From a virus, in IMG/VR virus record IMGVR_UViG_3300031688_001339: a stretch of DNA of 64,000 bases. One strand, written 5' to 3'. Position 1 is the stretch's first letter. Each line of letters begins with the position of its first letter. Position numbers and translations under genes: made by a program. The notes below the pieces were generated by a model. That model was given only the letters and a program-made list of their open reading frames with translations, was not told the DNA's origin and did no database searches. Shown piece by piece: positions 37,460 through 54,923 of the stretch.

Positions 37460-38746
37460 TTAATAATTAGTTTCTCTTTTTGCCTTTAAATAGTATTCTT
37501 CTAGTTCGGGGTGTGTTGTAAATAAATCGTGTCCTTCTTTTTTACTAAAACCATTTTGGTCTAAATCGTGACAGTAATCAATTGTCTTAATAAATTCTTC
37601 AACATCTTGTTCTTTGTCTAATGCTTTTATAATATTAGGATAGTCTTTATAAAATGGTTTTAACTTCTCTTTAATTTCTTTAGGTAAATTCTTTACTTGT
37701 AATATTCTTGGGTGTTCAATGATATAAAACGTGTGTTGTATACCCATATCTTTTAATAATGCAATTAGTTTATAATTTTCTAGTACACTTAAAAAAGATA
37801 TTACAGAGTGAACATTAACTCTTGCGTTTCTTCTAGCTCTCATTGTTTTCACATTATCCAAAAGTGAAGGCCAATCTGATTTCTTTCTTAAATAGTCATT
37901 ATATTTACCGTAACTATCTATTGATACTTTCATAACAAACTCTTTGAAGTGAGGAAAGTAATCTCTAAAGTTGTAACCGTCCATATCAAATACTGATAAG
38001 TTTGTTTTATAGATTAAGTCTATACCTTTTGAATGACCTGTTGCTACTAATTTGTCTAATAGTTTGTAGTGATTTTTCATAACTAAAGGTTCGCCACCAA
38101 TTAGTTTGATTGATCTAGTATACTTTGCTACGGAGGCAACATCGTCTGTATATTCATCGTCATCATGTTTCATTGTATTCATTCTTTCACCGTCTTTAGG
38201 GTCTAGATCAGGATCATATACTTTTTTTAATTGTTTTAGTGAGAGAGTTCTAGTGTTAGCACTTCTTGGTGTACACATATAACAATCTAGATTACAAGCA
38301 TTACCAAACATCTTCATTTTAATATCTAGTATTCTTTCATCAAATTCTGTAATTGCTCCTTCTTCAACAAACTTTTGAACGGCTCTTAATAATTCTGGTA
38401 CTTTACTATCAAATGTTCCTGCTAGTATTTGTTCAGTATACTTTTGTCTGTCTGAACGACCATATTTTTGTTCTTGTTTCCAACAACCTGTACAATGATG
38501 TCTAAAATATTTTGGATCATAATCTTCTTTTAACATTTCTGCTCTTAATTTATTTTGATAGTCGGAAGTATACCATTCTTTTATTTTAGTATCTTCCATG
38601 TTATGGCCAGTTCTAGCTAGTGCGTCATAACAAGGTGCATATCTGCCACTTAAACTAGAGAATACGTGTGTGAAAGGAAGTGGACAAAACCATAGTTTTT
38701 TATCTTTTAGTTTTTGTTCAAACTCTTTTTTCTGTTGCTCGTTCAT
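37460..38746 (-). CDS. radical SAM protein with N-terminal twitch/SPASM-like domain
   Basis: FCPLPF.H, C..CW..E, GNACNLDCYMC, GGEP, SIDS. Confidence 0.9.
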   Translation of the reverse strand: MNEQQKKEFEQKLKDKKLWFCPLPFTHVFSSLSGRYAPCYDALARTGHNMEDTKIKEWYTSDYQNKLRAEMLKEDYDPKYFRHHCTGCWKQEQKYGRSDRQKYTEQILAGTFDSKVPELLRAVQKFVEEGAITEFDERILDIKMKMFGNACNLDCYMCTPRSANTRTLSLKQLKKVYDPDLDPKDGERMNTMKHDDDEYTDDVASVAKYTRSIKLIGGEPLVMKNHYKLLDKLVATGHSKGIDLIYKTNLSVFDMDGYNFRDYFPHFKEFVMKVSIDSYGKYNDYLRKKSDWPSLLDNVKTMRARRNARVNVHSVISFLSVLENYKLIALLKDMGIQHTFYIIEHPRILQVKNLPKEIKEKLKPFYKDYPNIIKALDKEQDVEEFIKTIDYCHDLDQNGFSKKEGHDLFTTHPELEEYYLKAKRETNY

Positions 38747-42965: not shown

Positions 42966-43805
42966 CTATACGTTCAATATGTTAGCGTACTTCTCAATAG
43001 GGAAGTGTCCCTTTGGTTGTACATACTCCTTACATGTTACACAATACTTTTCATATTTAAATAACTGGAAATTCATCATCTTGTCTACGTTTTCTTTTGT
43101 CATAGGAAACGATCTAGATAGTTCAAGATTGTTAGCAAACTTTTTACTACAGTGTACTATAGTTTTTGTTTCAAAGTTTATTACTGGTACCATTGGAAAA
43201 GCGGCACACATTTTACGATCTATTTCAGCTGCTTGTTTATGTACTTCTTCTACATCACCTTTAGTTGGTGTTCTACCATTAAATGCTTTGAACATAGTAT
43301 TTTTATGTTCTAGTTTCTTTTTAAATTCTGGATAGTTTGCTATGTATTTAAAGTAATTAGGTGTTTTAAGTACTACGTTATAGTTATTCATATCATTTGG
43401 TTCTAGATAGTCATAGTTACCTAATTTCTTTATCTCATCTGGATAAAAATCTAACGTTAAATGTTCTACATATAAAATATCTGGGTCTTTTAGTATCTCT
43501 GGGTATCTTTTTCTTATAAAAGAGTTAGATAAAACTTGGCAAATAAAATTAGGGTATTCTTTTACCATTGCAATCACTTCACGCAAGTTCTTAATTAGAC
43601 CTGGCTCTCCACCAAGTAAACATATTCTAGTCTTATAATTCTTTAAACTTTCTAACGTTTCTCTTAAAAAATCTAAATCTACTGTTAAGTTTCTCATTTC
43701 TAGAGTATAACTTGTACAGTAGTGACAATCTTTATTACAAGACATTGATAGAAAGAAATCTACAGCTAAGTAGTTCTTTTGTGCATATGTTAAATCAAAT
43801 TTCAT
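42966..43805 (-). CDS. radical SAM protein
   Basis: SCNKDCHYC, LLGGEPG, C-terminal Cys cluster. Confidence 0.88.
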   Translation of the reverse strand: MKFDLTYAQKNYLAVDFFLSMSCNKDCHYCTSYTLEMRNLTVDLDFLRETLESLKNYKTRICLLGGEPGLIKNLREVIAMVKEYPNFICQVLSNSFIRKRYPEILKDPDILYVEHLTLDFYPDEIKKLGNYDYLEPNDMNNYNVVLKTPNYFKYIANYPEFKKKLEHKNTMFKAFNGRTPTKGDVEEVHKQAAEIDRKMCAAFPMVPVINFETKTIVHCSKKFANNLELSRSFPMTKENVDKMMNFQLFKYEKYCVTCKEYVQPKGHFPIEKYANILNV

Positions 43806-49586: not shown

Positions 49587-50442
49587 TCATTGCCTTTATA
49601 ATTACTTCTATGTTTGGTCTATTAACTGGATCAGTAAGACAGTTGGCAGGTCTTTTGTAGTAAACAGGTCCTGCGTCTTTAATATTTTTATCTCTTACAT
49701 ATACAAAGTTCATTCCGAAGAAACGACACTCTTGCATTAATCTTGGTGCCGGATCAAATGTATGTTTAGTGTAAACGTAAGTATCAAACATACCTAGTAA
49801 ATTTTTTACAGGTACAAATATGTGATTTAGATTATGATCTATGTACTTATCTTTGTATGCCAATATACCATGATTTTGGTATTTGTGAATATGTTTCTTT
49901 AGTTCAGTGTAATAACTTTCATTTGTACCTAAAAATAGATACTTAAACTTAACATCTTTAACTATAGGTTTATATACACTGTAATTAATAATCTTTTCAA
50001 ATTGTCTACCTATGCCATTAACATATACCTCATGGTCGCATAAGTCAATTACTTTTTCTGGTTTAAAAAATTCTAGTGCTAAAGGATATTCTTTTGGGTG
50101 GTTTTCTGAATATACTGATATAAGAGGTTTCTTAAATAACAAACGTAAAGTTAATTGTGTATCTTTATCATAATCTTTGATACTCTTATATGCTAGAGTT
50201 ATCATACTTCTACCCATAATTAAATTTACATCAGCTTCTTCATAATCAAAATATACATTTTTCATATGTATATATTTTTCTGTTAAAGCTTCAATGTATG
50301 TTTCCTTGGTAAATTTGTAGTGAGGTATAATTATAAGTTTTGCGTTGATACCTAGATCATTTAGATATTGTACTTGTTCAAAGCTATAATGCATTAATCC
50401 GTCACCTGGTTTACTAGTCACCACTATATTCAATCTCATCAT
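49573..50442 (-). CDS. putative GT-B-fold glycosyltransferase-like protein
   Basis: PGDG..HYS.E, FD.YVY, FDPAPR..QEC..FG resembles a GT-B C-terminal motif; weak call. Confidence 0.45.
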   Translation of the reverse strand: MMRLNIVVTSKPGDGLMHYSFEQVQYLNDLGINAKLIIIPHYKFTKETYIEALTEKYIHMKNVYFDYEEADVNLIMGRSMITLAYKSIKDYDKDTQLTLRLLFKKPLISVYSENHPKEYPLALEFFKPEKVIDLCDHEVYVNGIGRQFEKIINYSVYKPIVKDVKFKYLFLGTNESYYTELKKHIHKYQNHGILAYKDKYIDHNLNHIFVPVKNLLGMFDTYVYTKHTFDPAPRLMQECRFFGMNFVYVRDKNIKDAGPVYYKRPANCLTDPVNRPNIEVIIKAMNDIL

Positions 50443-50447
50443 ACGCA

Positions 50448-50468
50448 TATTTATAACACTTATAAATA
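50448..50468. promoter_or_regulatory. back-to-back divergent T4 late promoters
   Basis: TATTTATA 50448-55 (minus-strand TATAAATA) and TATAAATA 50461-68. Confidence 0.75.
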
Positions 50469-50490
50469 ATGGATATAGAATGGAGGTCTA

Positions 50491-50646
50491 ATGACAATAA
50501 AACAAAAACATAAAGACTTAAAGACTAAAGTAATTAAAGCAGAGACAAAAAGAGAATTGAGACGAGGTCCTACAAGTTGGTTTGACCTACGTATGTTAAA
50601 GAAACTAAAATTACAAATGAAAGACAAATTAAAATTATCTAAATGA
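50491..50646 (+). CDS. small basic coiled-coil protein (DUF465/YdcH-like; not in ORF track)
   Basis: SD GGAGG; KHKDLK...LKKLKLQMKDKL; ATGA overlap with next gene. Confidence 0.65.
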   Translation: MTIKQKHKDLKTKVIKAETKRELRRGPTSWFDLRMLKKLKLQMKDKLKLSK

Positions 50647-51098
50647 TTAAATTTCAATATGATTTAGAAAAGATTAAGAAAGAGTTGGAATCTTTACCAG
50701 ATTATAACAAACAGTTATATCTGCAAGGTCACTCTAAAGATATGGATCCTGAAGAAGGAGCTGGCAAAGGTTATGATATAGACAGTAGCGAACACACATA
50801 TACTATTCCATTATTTGATATACCTTACATCAATAGTATAATGGAAGAACATAAACTTACTAGAACAAGATTAATGAGAATGAAACCTAAAGCATGTTAT
50901 CTTTGGCACAACGATTTAACAAAAAGATTACACATACCAATTGTTACAAATGATCATTGTTTTTTATTATTAGACAGTGATAGAATACACATACCAGCGA
51001 CAGGCGAGGCATATGTAATAGATACTACTAAATTTCATACAGCATTAAACTGCTCAAAGGAAAATCGTATTCATATTGTTGGAGGACTACCTTACTAA
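50643..51098 (+). CDS. aspartyl/asparaginyl beta-hydroxylase-like 2OG-Fe(II) oxygenase
   Basis: R.RLM.M.P, WHND..RLHIPI.TN, DTT..HTALN....RIHIV. Confidence 0.8.
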   Translation: MIKFQYDLEKIKKELESLPDYNKQLYLQGHSKDMDPEEGAGKGYDIDSSEHTYTIPLFDIPYINSIMEEHKLTRTRLMRMKPKACYLWHNDLTKRLHIPIVTNDHCFLLLDSDRIHIPATGEAYVIDTTKFHTALNCSKENRIHIVGGLPY

Positions 51099-52384
51099 TG
51101 TTATATGACGCTCTTATAACTTCACTACCAGGAATGGATAAAAGTAAACCTGCACCTGGTCCTTCTTTTTTAAAAGGATATTTAGAGACACAAGGATTTA
51201 AAATCAAAGTTATAGATGGCAATCAGTTAGATACTTTAGATAATATTCATAAAGAAATTGCAAAATATGATTTCAGATGGCTAGGTATATCTGTATTCTC
51301 TTATGAACAAAAAGATGACGCCTTAAAATTAGGTGAAAGATATGAAAATGTATTGTATGGTGGATCAGGTGTAGATATAGCATGGCCATCAAAATATTAT
51401 ATTACAGGAGAAGGAGAGTACGCCTTTGTAGAATTTTTAAATAACAATTTTGATTATCCTGGCATTAACGGAAAACAACCAAAACAAATAGAAGACATAG
51501 AGTCATTACCACCACCTGATTATTCAGACGTAATACAACAACATAACTATCGTAAATTTGTAATATCTGGTTCTAGAGGTTGCGTTAGAAATTGTACCTT
51601 TTGTGATGTTGCAAGTATATGGCCTAAATTTAGATGGAAGACAGGTAAGAAGATAGCAGACGAAATGCACCACGTATCAGAAACTACAGGTGGAAACAAA
51701 ATACATTTTTCAGACTCTTTAGTTAACGGATCAATGAAACACTTTAGGGATTTGTGTGCTGAGTTAGCTACTAGACCTAAAAAGATTAAATGGGAAGGAC
51801 AGTTTATCGTTAGAGCAGAAAAAACTTTCTCTAAACAGGACTTTGATAACTTAGCCAACTCTGGTTGTAATGGTTTAGAAATGGGTATAGAGGCAGGTAA
51901 TGAAGAAGTTAGAGATCATATGAAAAAGAAGTTTACCAATGAAGACATAAAATACTTTGTAACTAATTTAGGTGAACGAAATATTACAATGAAGTTTTTA
52001 CTTATTGTAGGTTATCCTACGGAAACGGAAAAAATGTTTGAAGATACTCTACAACTAATAAGAGACTATGCAAAGTATTCACATTTAATAAGTATATCAC
52101 ACCATGTTATGATGACCTTTAAAAATACACCATTAGACTTTGAACATAGAGAGTTGTTTGATAGTGAGTTTGGTTTTAAATGGAAGAATAAAAATTCAGA
52201 CTTTGATATAAGATTTCAAAGATTTATAAAAGTATATGAGTTAGGCAATGAATTAGGTTATAATTTCCAACAACATTGTATTGATAAGATAGAGAGATAC
52301 AAATCCGACAAACTTAATGAAAAAAGAAAGTCTATAGGATTTGCACACCCTAAAGCAAAGAAAACTTTACACGTTCAAAGTTAA
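51098..52384 (+). CDS. cobalamin (B12)-binding-domain radical SAM protein
   Basis: P..G.S.LKGYL...G..VID N-domain, GG.G, GEGE, PPPDY, SRGCVRNCTFC, DSL.NG, GIE.G, GYPTET. Confidence 0.9.
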   Translation: MLYDALITSLPGMDKSKPAPGPSFLKGYLETQGFKIKVIDGNQLDTLDNIHKEIAKYDFRWLGISVFSYEQKDDALKLGERYENVLYGGSGVDIAWPSKYYITGEGEYAFVEFLNNNFDYPGINGKQPKQIEDIESLPPPDYSDVIQQHNYRKFVISGSRGCVRNCTFCDVASIWPKFRWKTGKKIADEMHHVSETTGGNKIHFSDSLVNGSMKHFRDLCAELATRPKKIKWEGQFIVRAEKTFSKQDFDNLANSGCNGLEMGIEAGNEEVRDHMKKKFTNEDIKYFVTNLGERNITMKFLLIVGYPTETEKMFEDTLQLIRDYAKYSHLISISHHVMMTFKNTPLDFEHRELFDSEFGFKWKNKNSDFDIRFQRFIKVYELGNELGYNFQQHCIDKIERYKSDKLNEKRKSIGFAHPKAKKTLHVQS

Positions 52385-54165
52385 AAGTTCTTTTTTATTC
52401 CAAAGTTAAAGTTTCTACCATCTTGGTTATAACCATCTGGTCTTTCATAGTTTTCATCAAAAGCATTATTAAGTTTAGAGTATATTAAATAATCTCCAAT
52501 ATATTTTGAAACACCAAAGTCTACTGTTGTAACCTCTGATTTAGGAATAGTAGCATAAGTCACACTATCTATATCTAAATGTTCTCCATAATAATTTATA
52601 TTAGATGTTAAATTATAACCTTTGTACTCTGTATAGATACTTGTATTATTAATCCATTTTGGTTTTCTAGTTAAAGATGTTCCGTTACTTCCTTCAGAAA
52701 CTATCCAACTTGTATTATTCTTTATGATAAAATTGTTTATATCATAAGTCAATCCCATTTCAGCACCATGACGAGTAGATGTACCACTAATATTTTTTAT
52801 CGTACTGTCTTGGTAGTTTAAAAGATTTTCTATATCAATTTGAAAAATAGCTATATCAATTGATTTAAGATTAGTTTCTTCAAAATGTTTTTTATATCCT
52901 ATTTCGTAAGATTTACTTTCTTCAGGTTTTGCATTTTCATTACCTGAAAATCCGTAACCACTTGTACCATACATTTCATATAACGTAGGTGCTTTATGAC
53001 CTGTAGATATAGAACCTCTTATGCCGTTATGTTCAAAACCATATCTATGATTAGTAAAACTACCAAATCTTGATTGATCATCATATCTAATACCATAAGT
53101 TAAAAAAGTATCATTAATTAAATAGTCAATTGTTCCACTGTAACCATGTAAGTGACTTTTTTTATTAACACTTGGAACATAAGAACCAATGTTAGTGTTG
53201 AAATTAACATCTGTTATTTCATGGTCAAAGCCTGAAGTAAATGATAGATTGTCATTAACAGATTTTGTATTGTCTACATGAAAAGTTTTTACATTACTTT
53301 CATATAGGTCAGTGTCGCCAGATTTAAGATATGATCTTTTATGATCACTATTATTAAATGTAAAGTGAGTATCTTTATCAAAGTAATTAATTTGTTGGTT
53401 TTTAAAATTCCACTCACTAGTGTAAGCTAAGTTATCAGAACCAGAATTATCTAAACTAGAATCATTTTGTTTGTCTATAAAAATGGTACCTAAAGTATAA
53501 CCATTATCTAAAGTAGTTTCTGTATTAAGAAAGTAACTTCTATTATCATAAGGGTCTTTTTCCGCACCTTGAGGATAAACAGAGATACCATCACTAGTCT
53601 CATCTTCAATTCTAAAGTCTAATATAGTTTTGTGTTCTTCAAGGAATGTTCCTAATTTTATTGTTTTGTTCCATGTGTTATGAGAACCATAATCTAATGA
53701 AATTGAATTTTCATCACTAGCACAGGTTTTCATATTGATAACACCACCAATAGCTTCAGCACCATAAACTGTTCCCATAGGACCTTTTATGATTTCTATA
53801 GCACAAGTGCCTAATGTTCCGTGTTGTCCGATATCATCTGTACCACCGGTAGTTGATCTATCTTTTATTCCGATACCATTTAATGTTATTAATGTATGAT
53901 CTGAATCTGTTCCTCTGGTAAATGTAGAAGACAGTTGATTTTTAGGACCTGAAGTTACAATATTAAGTGAAGTACTTTCATTTAAATTTTCAGGACCAAT
54001 AATGTCATACGAATATGTTTTGTGTTGATGGTCGCTAGCAGTCCTTAATCCATGAATATGGAGGGTGACGACCAAGTTGCCATCATCGTCATAGTATGAT
54101 GGTTTTTCCTCATGTGCTAACGCAACGGTAGAGAAAAGAAGTATTGATAATAGTATTTTATACAT
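52381..54165 (-). CDS. btuB: TonB-dependent outer-membrane receptor, BtuB-like
   Basis: Signal peptide (..STVALA); NLVVTL TonB-box-like; RGTDSDHTLITLNGI; IEIIKGP..YGAEAIGGVIN; KAPTLYE; N...KPE; NNAFDENYERPDGYNQDGR; C-terminal Phe. Confidence 0.85.
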   Translation of the reverse strand: MYKILLSILLFSTVALAHEEKPSYYDDDGNLVVTLHIHGLRTASDHQHKTYSYDIIGPENLNESTSLNIVTSGPKNQLSSTFTRGTDSDHTLITLNGIGIKDRSTTGGTDDIGQHGTLGTCAIEIIKGPMGTVYGAEAIGGVINMKTCASDENSISLDYGSHNTWNKTIKLGTFLEEHKTILDFRIEDETSDGISVYPQGAEKDPYDNRSYFLNTETTLDNGYTLGTIFIDKQNDSSLDNSGSDNLAYTSEWNFKNQQINYFDKDTHFTFNNSDHKRSYLKSGDTDLYESNVKTFHVDNTKSVNDNLSFTSGFDHEITDVNFNTNIGSYVPSVNKKSHLHGYSGTIDYLINDTFLTYGIRYDDQSRFGSFTNHRYGFEHNGIRGSISTGHKAPTLYEMYGTSGYGFSGNENAKPEESKSYEIGYKKHFEETNLKSIDIAIFQIDIENLLNYQDSTIKNISGTSTRHGAEMGLTYDINNFIIKNNTSWIVSEGSNGTSLTRKPKWINNTSIYTEYKGYNLTSNINYYGEHLDIDSVTYATIPKSEVTTVDFGVSKYIGDYLIYSKLNNAFDENYERPDGYNQDGRNFNFGIKKNF

Positions 54166-54518
54166 AGTTTTCCAATTATTACACATATTAAAGTTGAAAC
54201 CAGTAAATTAAAATCAAATGGTATAGCCATAATATACGTTGTTAATAAATCGCCACCTGATTTATACCAGACAGCATAGTTAATAAGAACATGCCATGTC
54301 ATTACACCTACAAAAGTAGCATAGATTTCATTTTTAATAAATTTACTCGCAAGAACGAATAAGCACATACACCCATAAACAGGTATCATTAAAGAATGAA
54401 AGCCGATGAAAATATCCTTTATTAACAGAAAAGTCATTGGTAAAAGATATTGTATATAACGATTATTTGTAAGACTAGGTAATAATATAGCAATAGCAAA
54501 TAAAGGTGTCACATTCAT
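54117..54518 (-). CDS. BtuM/DUF6580-like small membrane transporter (putative B12 S-component)
   Basis: N.TPL.AIA, D..IGFH..M..VY, N.AVW, Y..AIPF; multi-TM; directly upstream of the BtuB-like gene. Confidence 0.65.
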   Translation of the reverse strand: MNVTPLFAIAILLPSLTNNRYIQYLLPMTFLLIKDIFIGFHSLMIPVYGCMCLFVLASKFIKNEIYATFVGVMTWHVLINYAVWYKSGGDLLTTYIMAIPFDFNLLVSTLICVIIGKLCIKYYYQYFFSLPLR

Positions 54519-54526
54519 ATTGTATC

Positions 54527-54576
54527 TATTTATACACTATTTTAAATTAAAAGGCAACCTTGAGGTCATATAAATA
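54527..54576. promoter_or_regulatory. divergent T4 late promoters
   Basis: Minus-strand TATAAATA at 54527-34; plus-strand TATAAATA at 54569-76. Confidence 0.7.
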
Positions 54577-54581
54577 ACTGT

Positions 54582-54923
54582 ATGGCTGGAATAGCAAACT
54601 TAACTATAGACCAAGGGTCTAATTTTACATACGATTTAGAAGTAACTAATAGTGATGGTACAGATTTTGATCTTACTGGATTTACGATGGTTGCTAAAAT
54701 GTCTAAAGGTTATTCCTCTACATATCCTAGAACAGTTTTTACATGTTCAGTATCACAACCAACCGAGGGTGTCGTTACTATAAGTTTAACTGCTGATCAA
54801 ACGAAAGCTTTAAAGGCAGGTCGTCACGTATTTGACGTAGTTGCTACTCATTCGGATAGTACTGTAACTCGTTTACTAGAGGGAATTGTTATTGTAACTC
54901 CCTCTGTAGTTCTTTCTTTTTAA
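54582..54923 (+). CDS. small virion structural/adaptor protein (BppU N-terminal-like)
   Basis: ANL.IDQG..F, DLTG....A.M.K, G.V.ISLTA.QT..LK.GR.V.DV, R.LEG...VTP.V. Confidence 0.75.
   Translation: MAGIANLTIDQGSNFTYDLEVTNSDGTDFDLTGFTMVAKMSKGYSSTYPRTVFTCSVSQPTEGVVTISLTADQTKALKAGRHVFDVVATHSDSTVTRLLEGIVIVTPSVVLSF

Follow-up and report, generated by a model that had tools for sequence, protein, structure and literature searches.

The stretch of DNA examined here, called the window throughout, is a 64,000-nt sequence from IMG/VR record IMGVR_UViG_3300031688_001339, and our subject is a two-gene unit on its minus strand, in which a small membrane protein of the DUF6580 family is followed by a TonB-dependent receptor resembling the BtuB of enterobacteria. 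An earlier note on this DNA, made from the letters alone, had described such a unit and proposed that it imports vitamin B12; all of the coordinates given there were verified, and the order of small membrane protein and then receptor is borne out. The DUF6580 gene (P0003, 133 aa, five helices) lies at 54117..54518 (minus strand), and the receptor gene (P0002) at 52381..54165 (minus strand) within an open reading frame (ORF) of 601 aa that opens at 54186. The two genes overlap by 49-70 nt (54117-54186), and this overlap is kept in related phages. A late-promoter-like box of the T4 type, TATAAATA, is found at 54527..54534 (minus strand), 8 nt upstream of the DUF6580 ATG, so the unit does have the box of its own that had been reported for it. 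At its far end the receptor gene converges on a gene for a radical S-adenosylmethionine (SAM) enzyme (P0001, 428 aa; 51098..52384, plus strand). The stop codon of the latter (52382-52384) and that of the receptor (complement of 52381-52383) both fall inside TTAA, and the previously noted overlap of stops at 52381-52384 is thus real.

The window is part of a marine T4-like myophage genome, with genes for gp5, gp25, gp6, other baseplate proteins and collagen-like fibres. Its gp6 shares 68.8% identity with the gp6 of Pelagibacter phage Mosig and ~53% with those of Melnitz and HTVC008M, its G+C content is ~31%, and the phage probably infects SAR11 bacteria.

A receptor of the BtuB type

The likely true start of the receptor is Met8, at 54165, which is used by public gene calls and which gives a protein of 594 aa with a standard signal peptide ending in ALA, directly before HEE. 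In Pfam, the receptor matches Plug (37.5 bits) and TonB_dep_Rec_b-barrel (80.3 bits). Among the NCBIfam models those for BtuB rank first and align over the full length (TIGR01779, 160.8 bits; NF007926, 115.4 bits), as opposed to at most 68 bits for models of other receptors, including those for siderophores and haem, so that BtuB is the best match by more than 90 bits. The solved structures agree: only BtuB aligns over receptor residues 73-595 (E. coli BtuB, expectation value (E) 6e-22), while the others match the plug alone. On both of these grounds the receptor is BtuB-like rather than of the siderophore type, as the earlier note had supposed.

The architecture, too, is that of BtuB, comprising a plug, a beta-barrel, a signal peptide, a TonB box-like motif (NLVVTL, at the place of BtuB's TonB box) and a C-terminal aromatic residue. 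The latter is a terminal Phe in the window receptor and is present in 91% of its phage homologues; across the receptors the plug is conserved more than the barrel (column consensus 0.70 vs 0.54). Over its full length the window receptor is 25% identical to Salmonella BtuB and 31% identical to a SAR11 receptor with an adenosylcobalamin (AdoCbl)-II riboswitch, and we infer that its substrate is cobalamin or a related corrinoid. In public protein data it is surrounded by a large family at 35-60% identity, beyond which the scores drop sharply to bacterial receptors at ~26%. When a cultured-phage collection was searched at the DNA and protein levels, neither the receptor nor the radical SAM enzyme had a real phage relative there, the only receptor matches being bacterial BtuB in mislabelled records.

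A truncated candidate carrier with an S-component-like fold

The 133-aa protein matches PF20221 (DUF6580) with 58.5 bits, compared with a gathering cut-off of 27, over profile positions 27-146 of 162. In an alignment with full-length members it begins exactly at the N-[FV]-T-P motif, and it retains the family motifs D-x3-G-F-H, V-Y and PF(D/F)xN. An AlphaFold (AF2) model of it is a five-helix bundle with a predicted local distance difference test (pLDDT) score of 88.6. When this model is put through an exhaustive structural search, BtuM in complex with hydroxycobalamin (8ovv_A) comes first (Z 12.1, root-mean-square deviation 2.4 Å, 125 residues, chain residues 26-182), and other S-components of energy-coupling factor (ECF) transporters rank below it, at Z 8-11. 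BtuM was found by this exhaustive aligner only; a Foldseek search of the PDB with the model returned nothing significant.

At the level of sequence, a profile of 80 DUF6580 proteins matches one solved family, the 182-aa membrane chain of ECF-CbrT (6fnp_A; E 2e-4, positions 5-155), which would be CbrT itself, judging from the chain size and name. BtuM in the PDB was not found by the carrier sequence, by profile A1 or by profile A2 (E up to 10). There is no invariant cysteine in the DUF6580 family; Cys50 is invariant in 18 short phage-type homologues but not across DUF6580, and in the loop at 39-43 it is the GFH motif that is conserved. Although the fold matches, the carrier also departs from BtuM in its size and helices, with 133 aa and no helix 1. 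The earlier description of this protein as BtuM-like therefore survives as regards its S-component-like fold, for which BtuM is the best structural match, but not as regards its family, which is DUF6580 and whose profile finds CbrT. At best it would work like BtuM without being a BtuM family member, and it is a candidate inner-membrane corrinoid carrier with the fold of an ECF S-component.

Truncated as it is, the carrier is under purifying selection, the ratio of nonsynonymous to synonymous substitution rates (dN/dS) being 0.14 against its counterpart in the related phage locus L004; across the 18 short homologues, of 60-99% identity, 43 columns are invariant. Many phage contigs carry the short form, and in every case it overlaps the receptor gene; the exact carrier sequence is indexed in 242 blocks of a public assembly collection. 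Among the loci retrieved, the bacterial proteins closest to the carrier come from SAR11, at 30-38% identity. Overlaps of 57-75 nt between the DUF6580 and receptor genes recur throughout the short-form phage group, and this overlap makes the receptor's first residues identical in alleles that are otherwise 45% identical. In a 3.5-kb contig (L007:1-3505), the exact short DUF6580 of another phage group has Na+/H+ antiporter, NifU and peroxiredoxin genes as neighbours, which may reflect host context, phage cargo or a chimeric assembly.

Spread among phages and exchange of receptor alleles

A relative of the receptor is encoded on at least 107 IMG/VR contigs. We analysed 100 phage loci (80 viral contigs plus near-duplicate assembly loci), and in about two thirds of these the DUF6580 gene touches the receptor gene, either overlapping it from upstream or lying directly downstream. 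That adjacency is kept in either order argues for a functional pair. The contexts in which the pair is found vary across the phages (near gp25/gp5; near terminase/UvsX/UvsW; among tRNA genes), which means that it moves as a unit.

The receptor itself is exchanged between phages. Comparing the window with L004, the receptors (52381-54165 vs L004:8022-9788) are 46% identical, whereas the flanking proteins are 88-92% identical, and dN is 0.52 for the receptor vs 0.07 for the flanking genes. In the receptor tree (see below), the window receptor is closest to that of L009 (60%), and the L004 receptor groups with those of L034 and L046. This divergence reflects allele exchange and not fast point change. 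Such exchange is typical of surface proteins under conflict, and it keeps a role of the receptor in conflict in play as a minor rival to one in nutrition.

Cobalamin riboswitches and descent of the pair

A scan of species genomes for the DUF6580 motif yielded at least 593 confirmed loci, many of them in Pelagibacteraceae, SAR116 and SAR86. In 38 of 80 such loci the phage-receptor profile finds a receptor gene, mostly directly adjoining the DUF6580 gene; the receptor of L127 is too divergent for this profile. Rfam scans of 17 bacterial receptor-DUF6580 loci show that, in all but one, the receptor is immediately preceded by a cobalamin riboswitch (RF00174 or AdoCbl-II, RF01689), and an AdoCbl-II riboswitch stands directly upstream of a full-length DUF6580-receptor pair in 5 of the 12 related phage loci scanned. 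These riboswitches make the module a member of the cobalamin regulon, in bacteria as well as in a number of phages, and the link of the pair to B12, as read from sequence comparison, is strong. In SAR11 the locus is conserved, with phosphoglucomutase, riboswitch, receptor (590 or 762 aa), DUF6580 and two acyl-CoA dehydrogenases in that order; the receptors of the two lengths, found at one and the same chromosomal locus, are deeply divergent.

A maximum-likelihood tree of 61 non-redundant receptors (rows more than 85% identical to a kept row being excluded), rooted on Salmonella BtuB, joins all 33 non-redundant phage receptors in one clade (Shimodaira-Hasegawa-like approximate likelihood-ratio test, SH-aLRT, 99). 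The sister of this clade (support 99) consists of four Pelagibacteraceae receptors, three with an AdoCbl-II riboswitch (L122, L138, L164) and one without (L172), and the five riboswitch-bearing phage loci belong to the basal phage group. The L172 pair (L172:2024-4432), in a Pelagibacteraceae single-cell genome, lies among sugar-modification genes, and its receptor is the top-scoring bacterial one against the phage profile (359 bits); the pair could be phage-derived or an island copy. Three phage contigs have a glutamine riboswitch ~500 bp upstream of the receptor gene (L069:8271-8318, L074:6466-6512, L081:3594-3640), and these belong to the group with the gene order receptor then DUF6580.

The bacterial operons also bear on the earlier supposition that the host may not import B12. 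Pelagibacteraceae carry a riboswitch-controlled receptor-DUF6580 pair of their own as well as B12-binding-domain proteins, the latter in all five Pelagibacteraceae genomes reached through the loci (G002-G006), and for lineages with the operon that premise is unsupported. By the barrel model, each of the five genomes has at most one TonB-dependent receptor.

A late-promoter-like box in place of the riboswitch

An Rfam scan of the whole window returned no family at threshold, hence no cobalamin riboswitch, in agreement with the earlier note, and the 63-bp gap upstream of the pair leaves no space for an aptamer. The window receptor thus lacks the upstream riboswitch that marks membership of the cobalamin regulon, and this phage lineage has lost it. 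Judged by motif, the pair has a T4-type late promoter, with TATAAATA just upstream of its first gene. Such boxes number 21 in the window vs 13.4 expected, a count that was reached by 5 of 100 shuffles and is weak taken alone; most of them lie 6-40 nt upstream of an ORF start in the correct orientation. A divergent twin of the box (54569-54576, plus strand) serves the divergent gene at 54582-54923.

In four studies, seawater RNA libraries contain contigs at least 95% identical to the window that overlap portions of the DUF6580, receptor and radical SAM genes (window 50400-54700). The contigs give a weak hint of expression, as contigs cannot show transcription, strand or ends. One such contig, of 400 nt, spans 54123-54522 and ends 5 nt past the box, which is an anecdote.

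The adjacent radical SAM enzyme and its island

P0001 matches Radical_SAM (PF04055) with 71.1 bits, and its CxxxCxxC motif (C162/C166/C169) is invariant in 38 homologues. The families that P0001 matches best, for the most part over the core, are without exception B12-binding radical SAM families. The B12-binding model PF02310 scores 20.9 bits on the N-terminal domain, under the cut-off of 32.1, and about a quarter of the listed homologues carry a precomputed B12-binding match. With a model of P0001 (pLDDT 88.2), the best Foldseek matches are MgmA, TsrM, OxsB, CysS and TokK, with AprD4 equally good and with MiaB and RimO less so. AprD4 is not known to use cobalamin. The predicted architecture is that of a class B radical SAM enzyme, and cobalamin use is plausible. 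What had been called a B12-dependent radical SAM enzyme accordingly keeps its class by fold, while its binding of cobalamin is put no higher than plausible, given the sub-threshold domain score and the equal match to AprD4.

Only three phage sub-lineages have a homologue of P0001 next to the pair (the window type; L004; L034/L035/L039 with L193-L195), and in most of the phage contigs that carry the pair no such gene lies within 10 kb. A 59%-identical radical SAM gene and its cupin partner, moreover, occur without the pair in L196/L197, where further radical SAM and SPASM genes follow. On co-occurrence, then, an obligate link of the pair with the radical SAM gene is not supported. The cupin is always paired with the radical SAM enzyme. 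In the window it is P0004 (50643..51098, plus strand; 151 aa; PF05118, 36.1 bits), of the Asp/Arg beta-hydroxylase type. It is preceded by a basic ORF of 51 aa (50491..50646, plus strand), for a homologue of which a faint DUF465 match is recorded, and this in turn by a TATAAATA box from the box scan of the window (50461..50468, plus strand). Box, basic ORF, cupin hydroxylase and class-B-like radical SAM gene form one unit (50461-52384), which resembles a peptide- or protein-modification cluster.

The pair lies near the right end of a 23-kb island (window 35443-58323), mostly on the minus strand, between baseplate and fibre genes. The island encodes a carbamoyltransferase, an aminotransferase, glycosyltransferases, a nitroreductase-fold protein and at least three radical SAM enzymes (37460-38746, 42966-43805 and, on the plus strand, 51098-52384), and has late-type boxes at internal junctions. 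The first of these enzymes, likewise of 428 aa, was considered as a relative of P0001 and rejected, being unrelated and without a B12 domain. No B12 domain was found in the other island proteins scanned. Class II ribonucleotide reductase, sought in five long related viral records, gave sub-threshold matches only, in two of them, a result that points neither way.

Interpretation

In our view the pair is likely to serve the phage as an auxiliary module for corrinoid uptake, derived from SAR11-type operons and uncoupled from the B12 switch. The gene identities, the fold, the phylogeny, the riboswitch association in relatives and the purifying selection support this reading, and it is from these that we infer the substrate, the transport, the timing and the benefit. 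The ancestor would have been a riboswitch-receptor-DUF6580 operon of SAR11-type hosts. The receptor, exported by its signal peptide, would insert into the outer membrane and take up corrinoid there, with energy that must come from host proteins, and the S-component-like DUF6580 protein would move the corrinoid across the inner membrane without an ECF module, as BtuM does. With the riboswitch gone and a T4-type late promoter abutting the first gene, the pair would be expressed under the phage programme and out of reach of B12 feedback, and infected cells would probably be made to take up B12 regardless of their own regulation. Candidate users of the vitamin are the adjacent class-B-like radical SAM enzyme and the B12 enzymes of the host.

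Several observations weigh against this account. The receptor scores far under the BtuB equivalog cut-offs (160.8 vs 599.7 bits for TIGR01779; 115.4 vs 836 for NF007926), and one third of the phage loci have a receptor without DUF6580. The short carrier has neither helix 1 nor the RLxPHPP motif of full-length DUF6580 proteins, and BtuM leads the other S-components by only ~1 Z unit. Binding and transport, whether by DUF6580 proteins or by the window receptor, are assigned by comparison, and late expression would leave little time for uptake to matter. On the host side, no TonB_C match was found in the five Pelagibacteraceae genomes, but these are incomplete and TonB domains are divergent, so that absence is unproven. 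In four of the five, ExbB-type and ExbD-type genes number just one each, and the sole such locus examined (L185, G006:C1:513500-522500) is a TolQ-TolR-TolB-Pal operon. The energising of the receptor is therefore a puzzle, as it is for the host's own receptor.

A narrower explanation, that of the earlier note and one that we hold only tentatively as it is probably not the whole purpose of the pair, is that supplying the class B radical SAM enzyme next door is what the module is specifically there for, the imported cobalamin serving as cofactor of a late-expressed methylation or rearrangement carried out together with the cupin hydroxylase. The tail-to-tail layout with its 4-nt stop overlap is kept in three sub-lineages even with a differing receptor allele, both units stand behind late-type boxes, and the fold of P0001 is that of cobalamin-dependent enzymes. 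Yet that fold is matched as well by AprD4, and the B12-binding domain stays under the Pfam cut-off. The distribution also speaks against it: the radical SAM gene is missing from the vicinity of most phage pairs, L046 and its relatives have a near-identical receptor allele without it, and in L196/L197 the cupin and radical SAM genes do without a receptor. That the pair imports not complete cobalamin but, for instance, cobinamide, pseudocobalamin or some further precursor, or else a cofactor of an unrelated kind, seems to us quite unlikely. Such import would fit a receptor with only 25% identity to enterobacterial BtuB and a DUF6580 family whose substrates have so far been assigned by comparison and not by assay, and cobinamide is handled also by BtuM and CbrT (PMC6072759; PMC5997447). 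The cobalamin-class riboswitches of the homologues, on the other hand, limit the ligand to corrinoids, unless the phage copy has changed its specificity.

Two further readings would take the pair out of nutrition altogether. According to one, the receptor serves phage-phage or phage-host conflict, as a surface protein swapped to alter or replace the host's single TonB-dependent receptor, possibly itself a phage receptor. In E. coli, BtuB is known to be used as a receptor by phages and colicins, and the steep fall in receptor identity between window and L004 relative to the flanking genes, the exchange of alleles between phage lineages in the tree and the deep divergence of host receptors at one SAR11 locus are all as this reading would have them. 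An extra receptor alone, however, does not exclude other phages, and the conserved plug and TonB-box region, together with the conserved coupling to an inner-membrane carrier and, in relatives, to a B12 riboswitch, point to transport, and we give this reading a small chance indeed. That the pair is decaying cargo, a passenger with a non-functional carrier, is most improbable. Helix 1 has been lost, but the low dN/dS, the 43 invariant columns and the recurrence of the same short form in many phage contigs, always overlapping the receptor gene, are not what decay would leave behind.

Returning to corrinoid uptake as the function of the pair, one can combine it with the adjoining unit in a speculative picture that, taken in full, is unlikely to be right in every part. 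Here abundant SAR11 phages would reprogramme B12 acquisition in the ocean's commonest bacteria by a deregulated two-membrane importer with a minimal five-helix carrier from DUF6580, which would be an uncharacterised family of B12 transporters; the receptor would be energised via TolQRA or another partner in a host without recognisable TonB-ExbBD, and the vitamin would supply a class B radical SAM pathway with which the phage modifies components of the virion or of the cell surface.

Plankton communities are shaped by B12, which is in short supply in seawater. If the favoured reading is true, a phage-encoded B12 importer freed from feedback would add to the auxiliary functions of viruses a new class directed at vitamin traffic, and it is widespread, given the at least 107 contigs counted above, and present in relatives of SAR11-infecting phages. 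In the literature library searched, nothing relevant turned up on phage-encoded btuB or TonB-dependent receptor auxiliary genes. The bacterial and phage loci together offer comparative evidence for DUF6580 as a B12 inner-membrane carrier, which would supply the missing step in the many bacteria with BtuB and without BtuCDF. They also raise the question of how TonB-dependent receptors function in SAR11 genomes that show only TolQR.

Comparison with known systems

The closest counterparts of the phage pair are the bacterial riboswitch-receptor-DUF6580 operons of SAR11, SAR116 and other marine bacteria, in which the same two proteins are encoded side by side and whose SAR11 receptors are the sister group of the phage clade. 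In the phage, the gene order is reversed, a late promoter takes the place of the riboswitch, the carrier is truncated and the genes overlap by 49-70 nt. To the BtuB of E. coli and Salmonella (PDB 1NQE-1NQH, 2GSK; TIGR01779), its best full-length sequence match, the window receptor is alike in its small size for the class, its plug and barrel, its TonB-box-like motif and its terminal Phe, and homologues of the phage receptor stand under a cobalamin riboswitch. It differs in its 25% identity and its score far under the equivalog cut-off, in being phage-encoded, without riboswitch and behind a late promoter, and in a likely host that shows no recognisable TonB-ExbBD.

For P0001, the class B enzymes MgmA, TsrM, OxsB, TokK and CysS provide the comparison. 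Architecture and CxxxCxxC motif are shared (template modelling (TM) scores of 0.62-0.68 by query), whereas identity is 14-18%, the B12-binding match lies under the Pfam cut-off and AprD4 matches equally.

For the carrier there are two solved models. CbrT, the B12-specific S-component of ECF-CbrT, whose structure is 6FNP (PMC5997447), is the only solved protein that the DUF6580 profile matches, but it needs an ECF module, whereas the DUF6580 genes here adjoin a receptor gene with no EcfT/EcfA nearby. BtuM of Thiobacillus denitrificans (PDB 6FFV/8OVV), a solitary S-component-like B12 transporter (PMC6072759), has no detectable sequence relation to the phage carrier. It is a protein of ~22 kDa with six helices, compared with 133 aa and five helices in the phage, and its invariant Cys80, the cobalt ligand in loop 3, is without a DUF6580-wide counterpart, the Cys50 of the carrier being invariant only in the phage subgroup. 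It is nonetheless the best structural match to the carrier, and it, too, is a small membrane protein encoded beside a BtuB-type gene with no ECF module nearby, just as in the phage.

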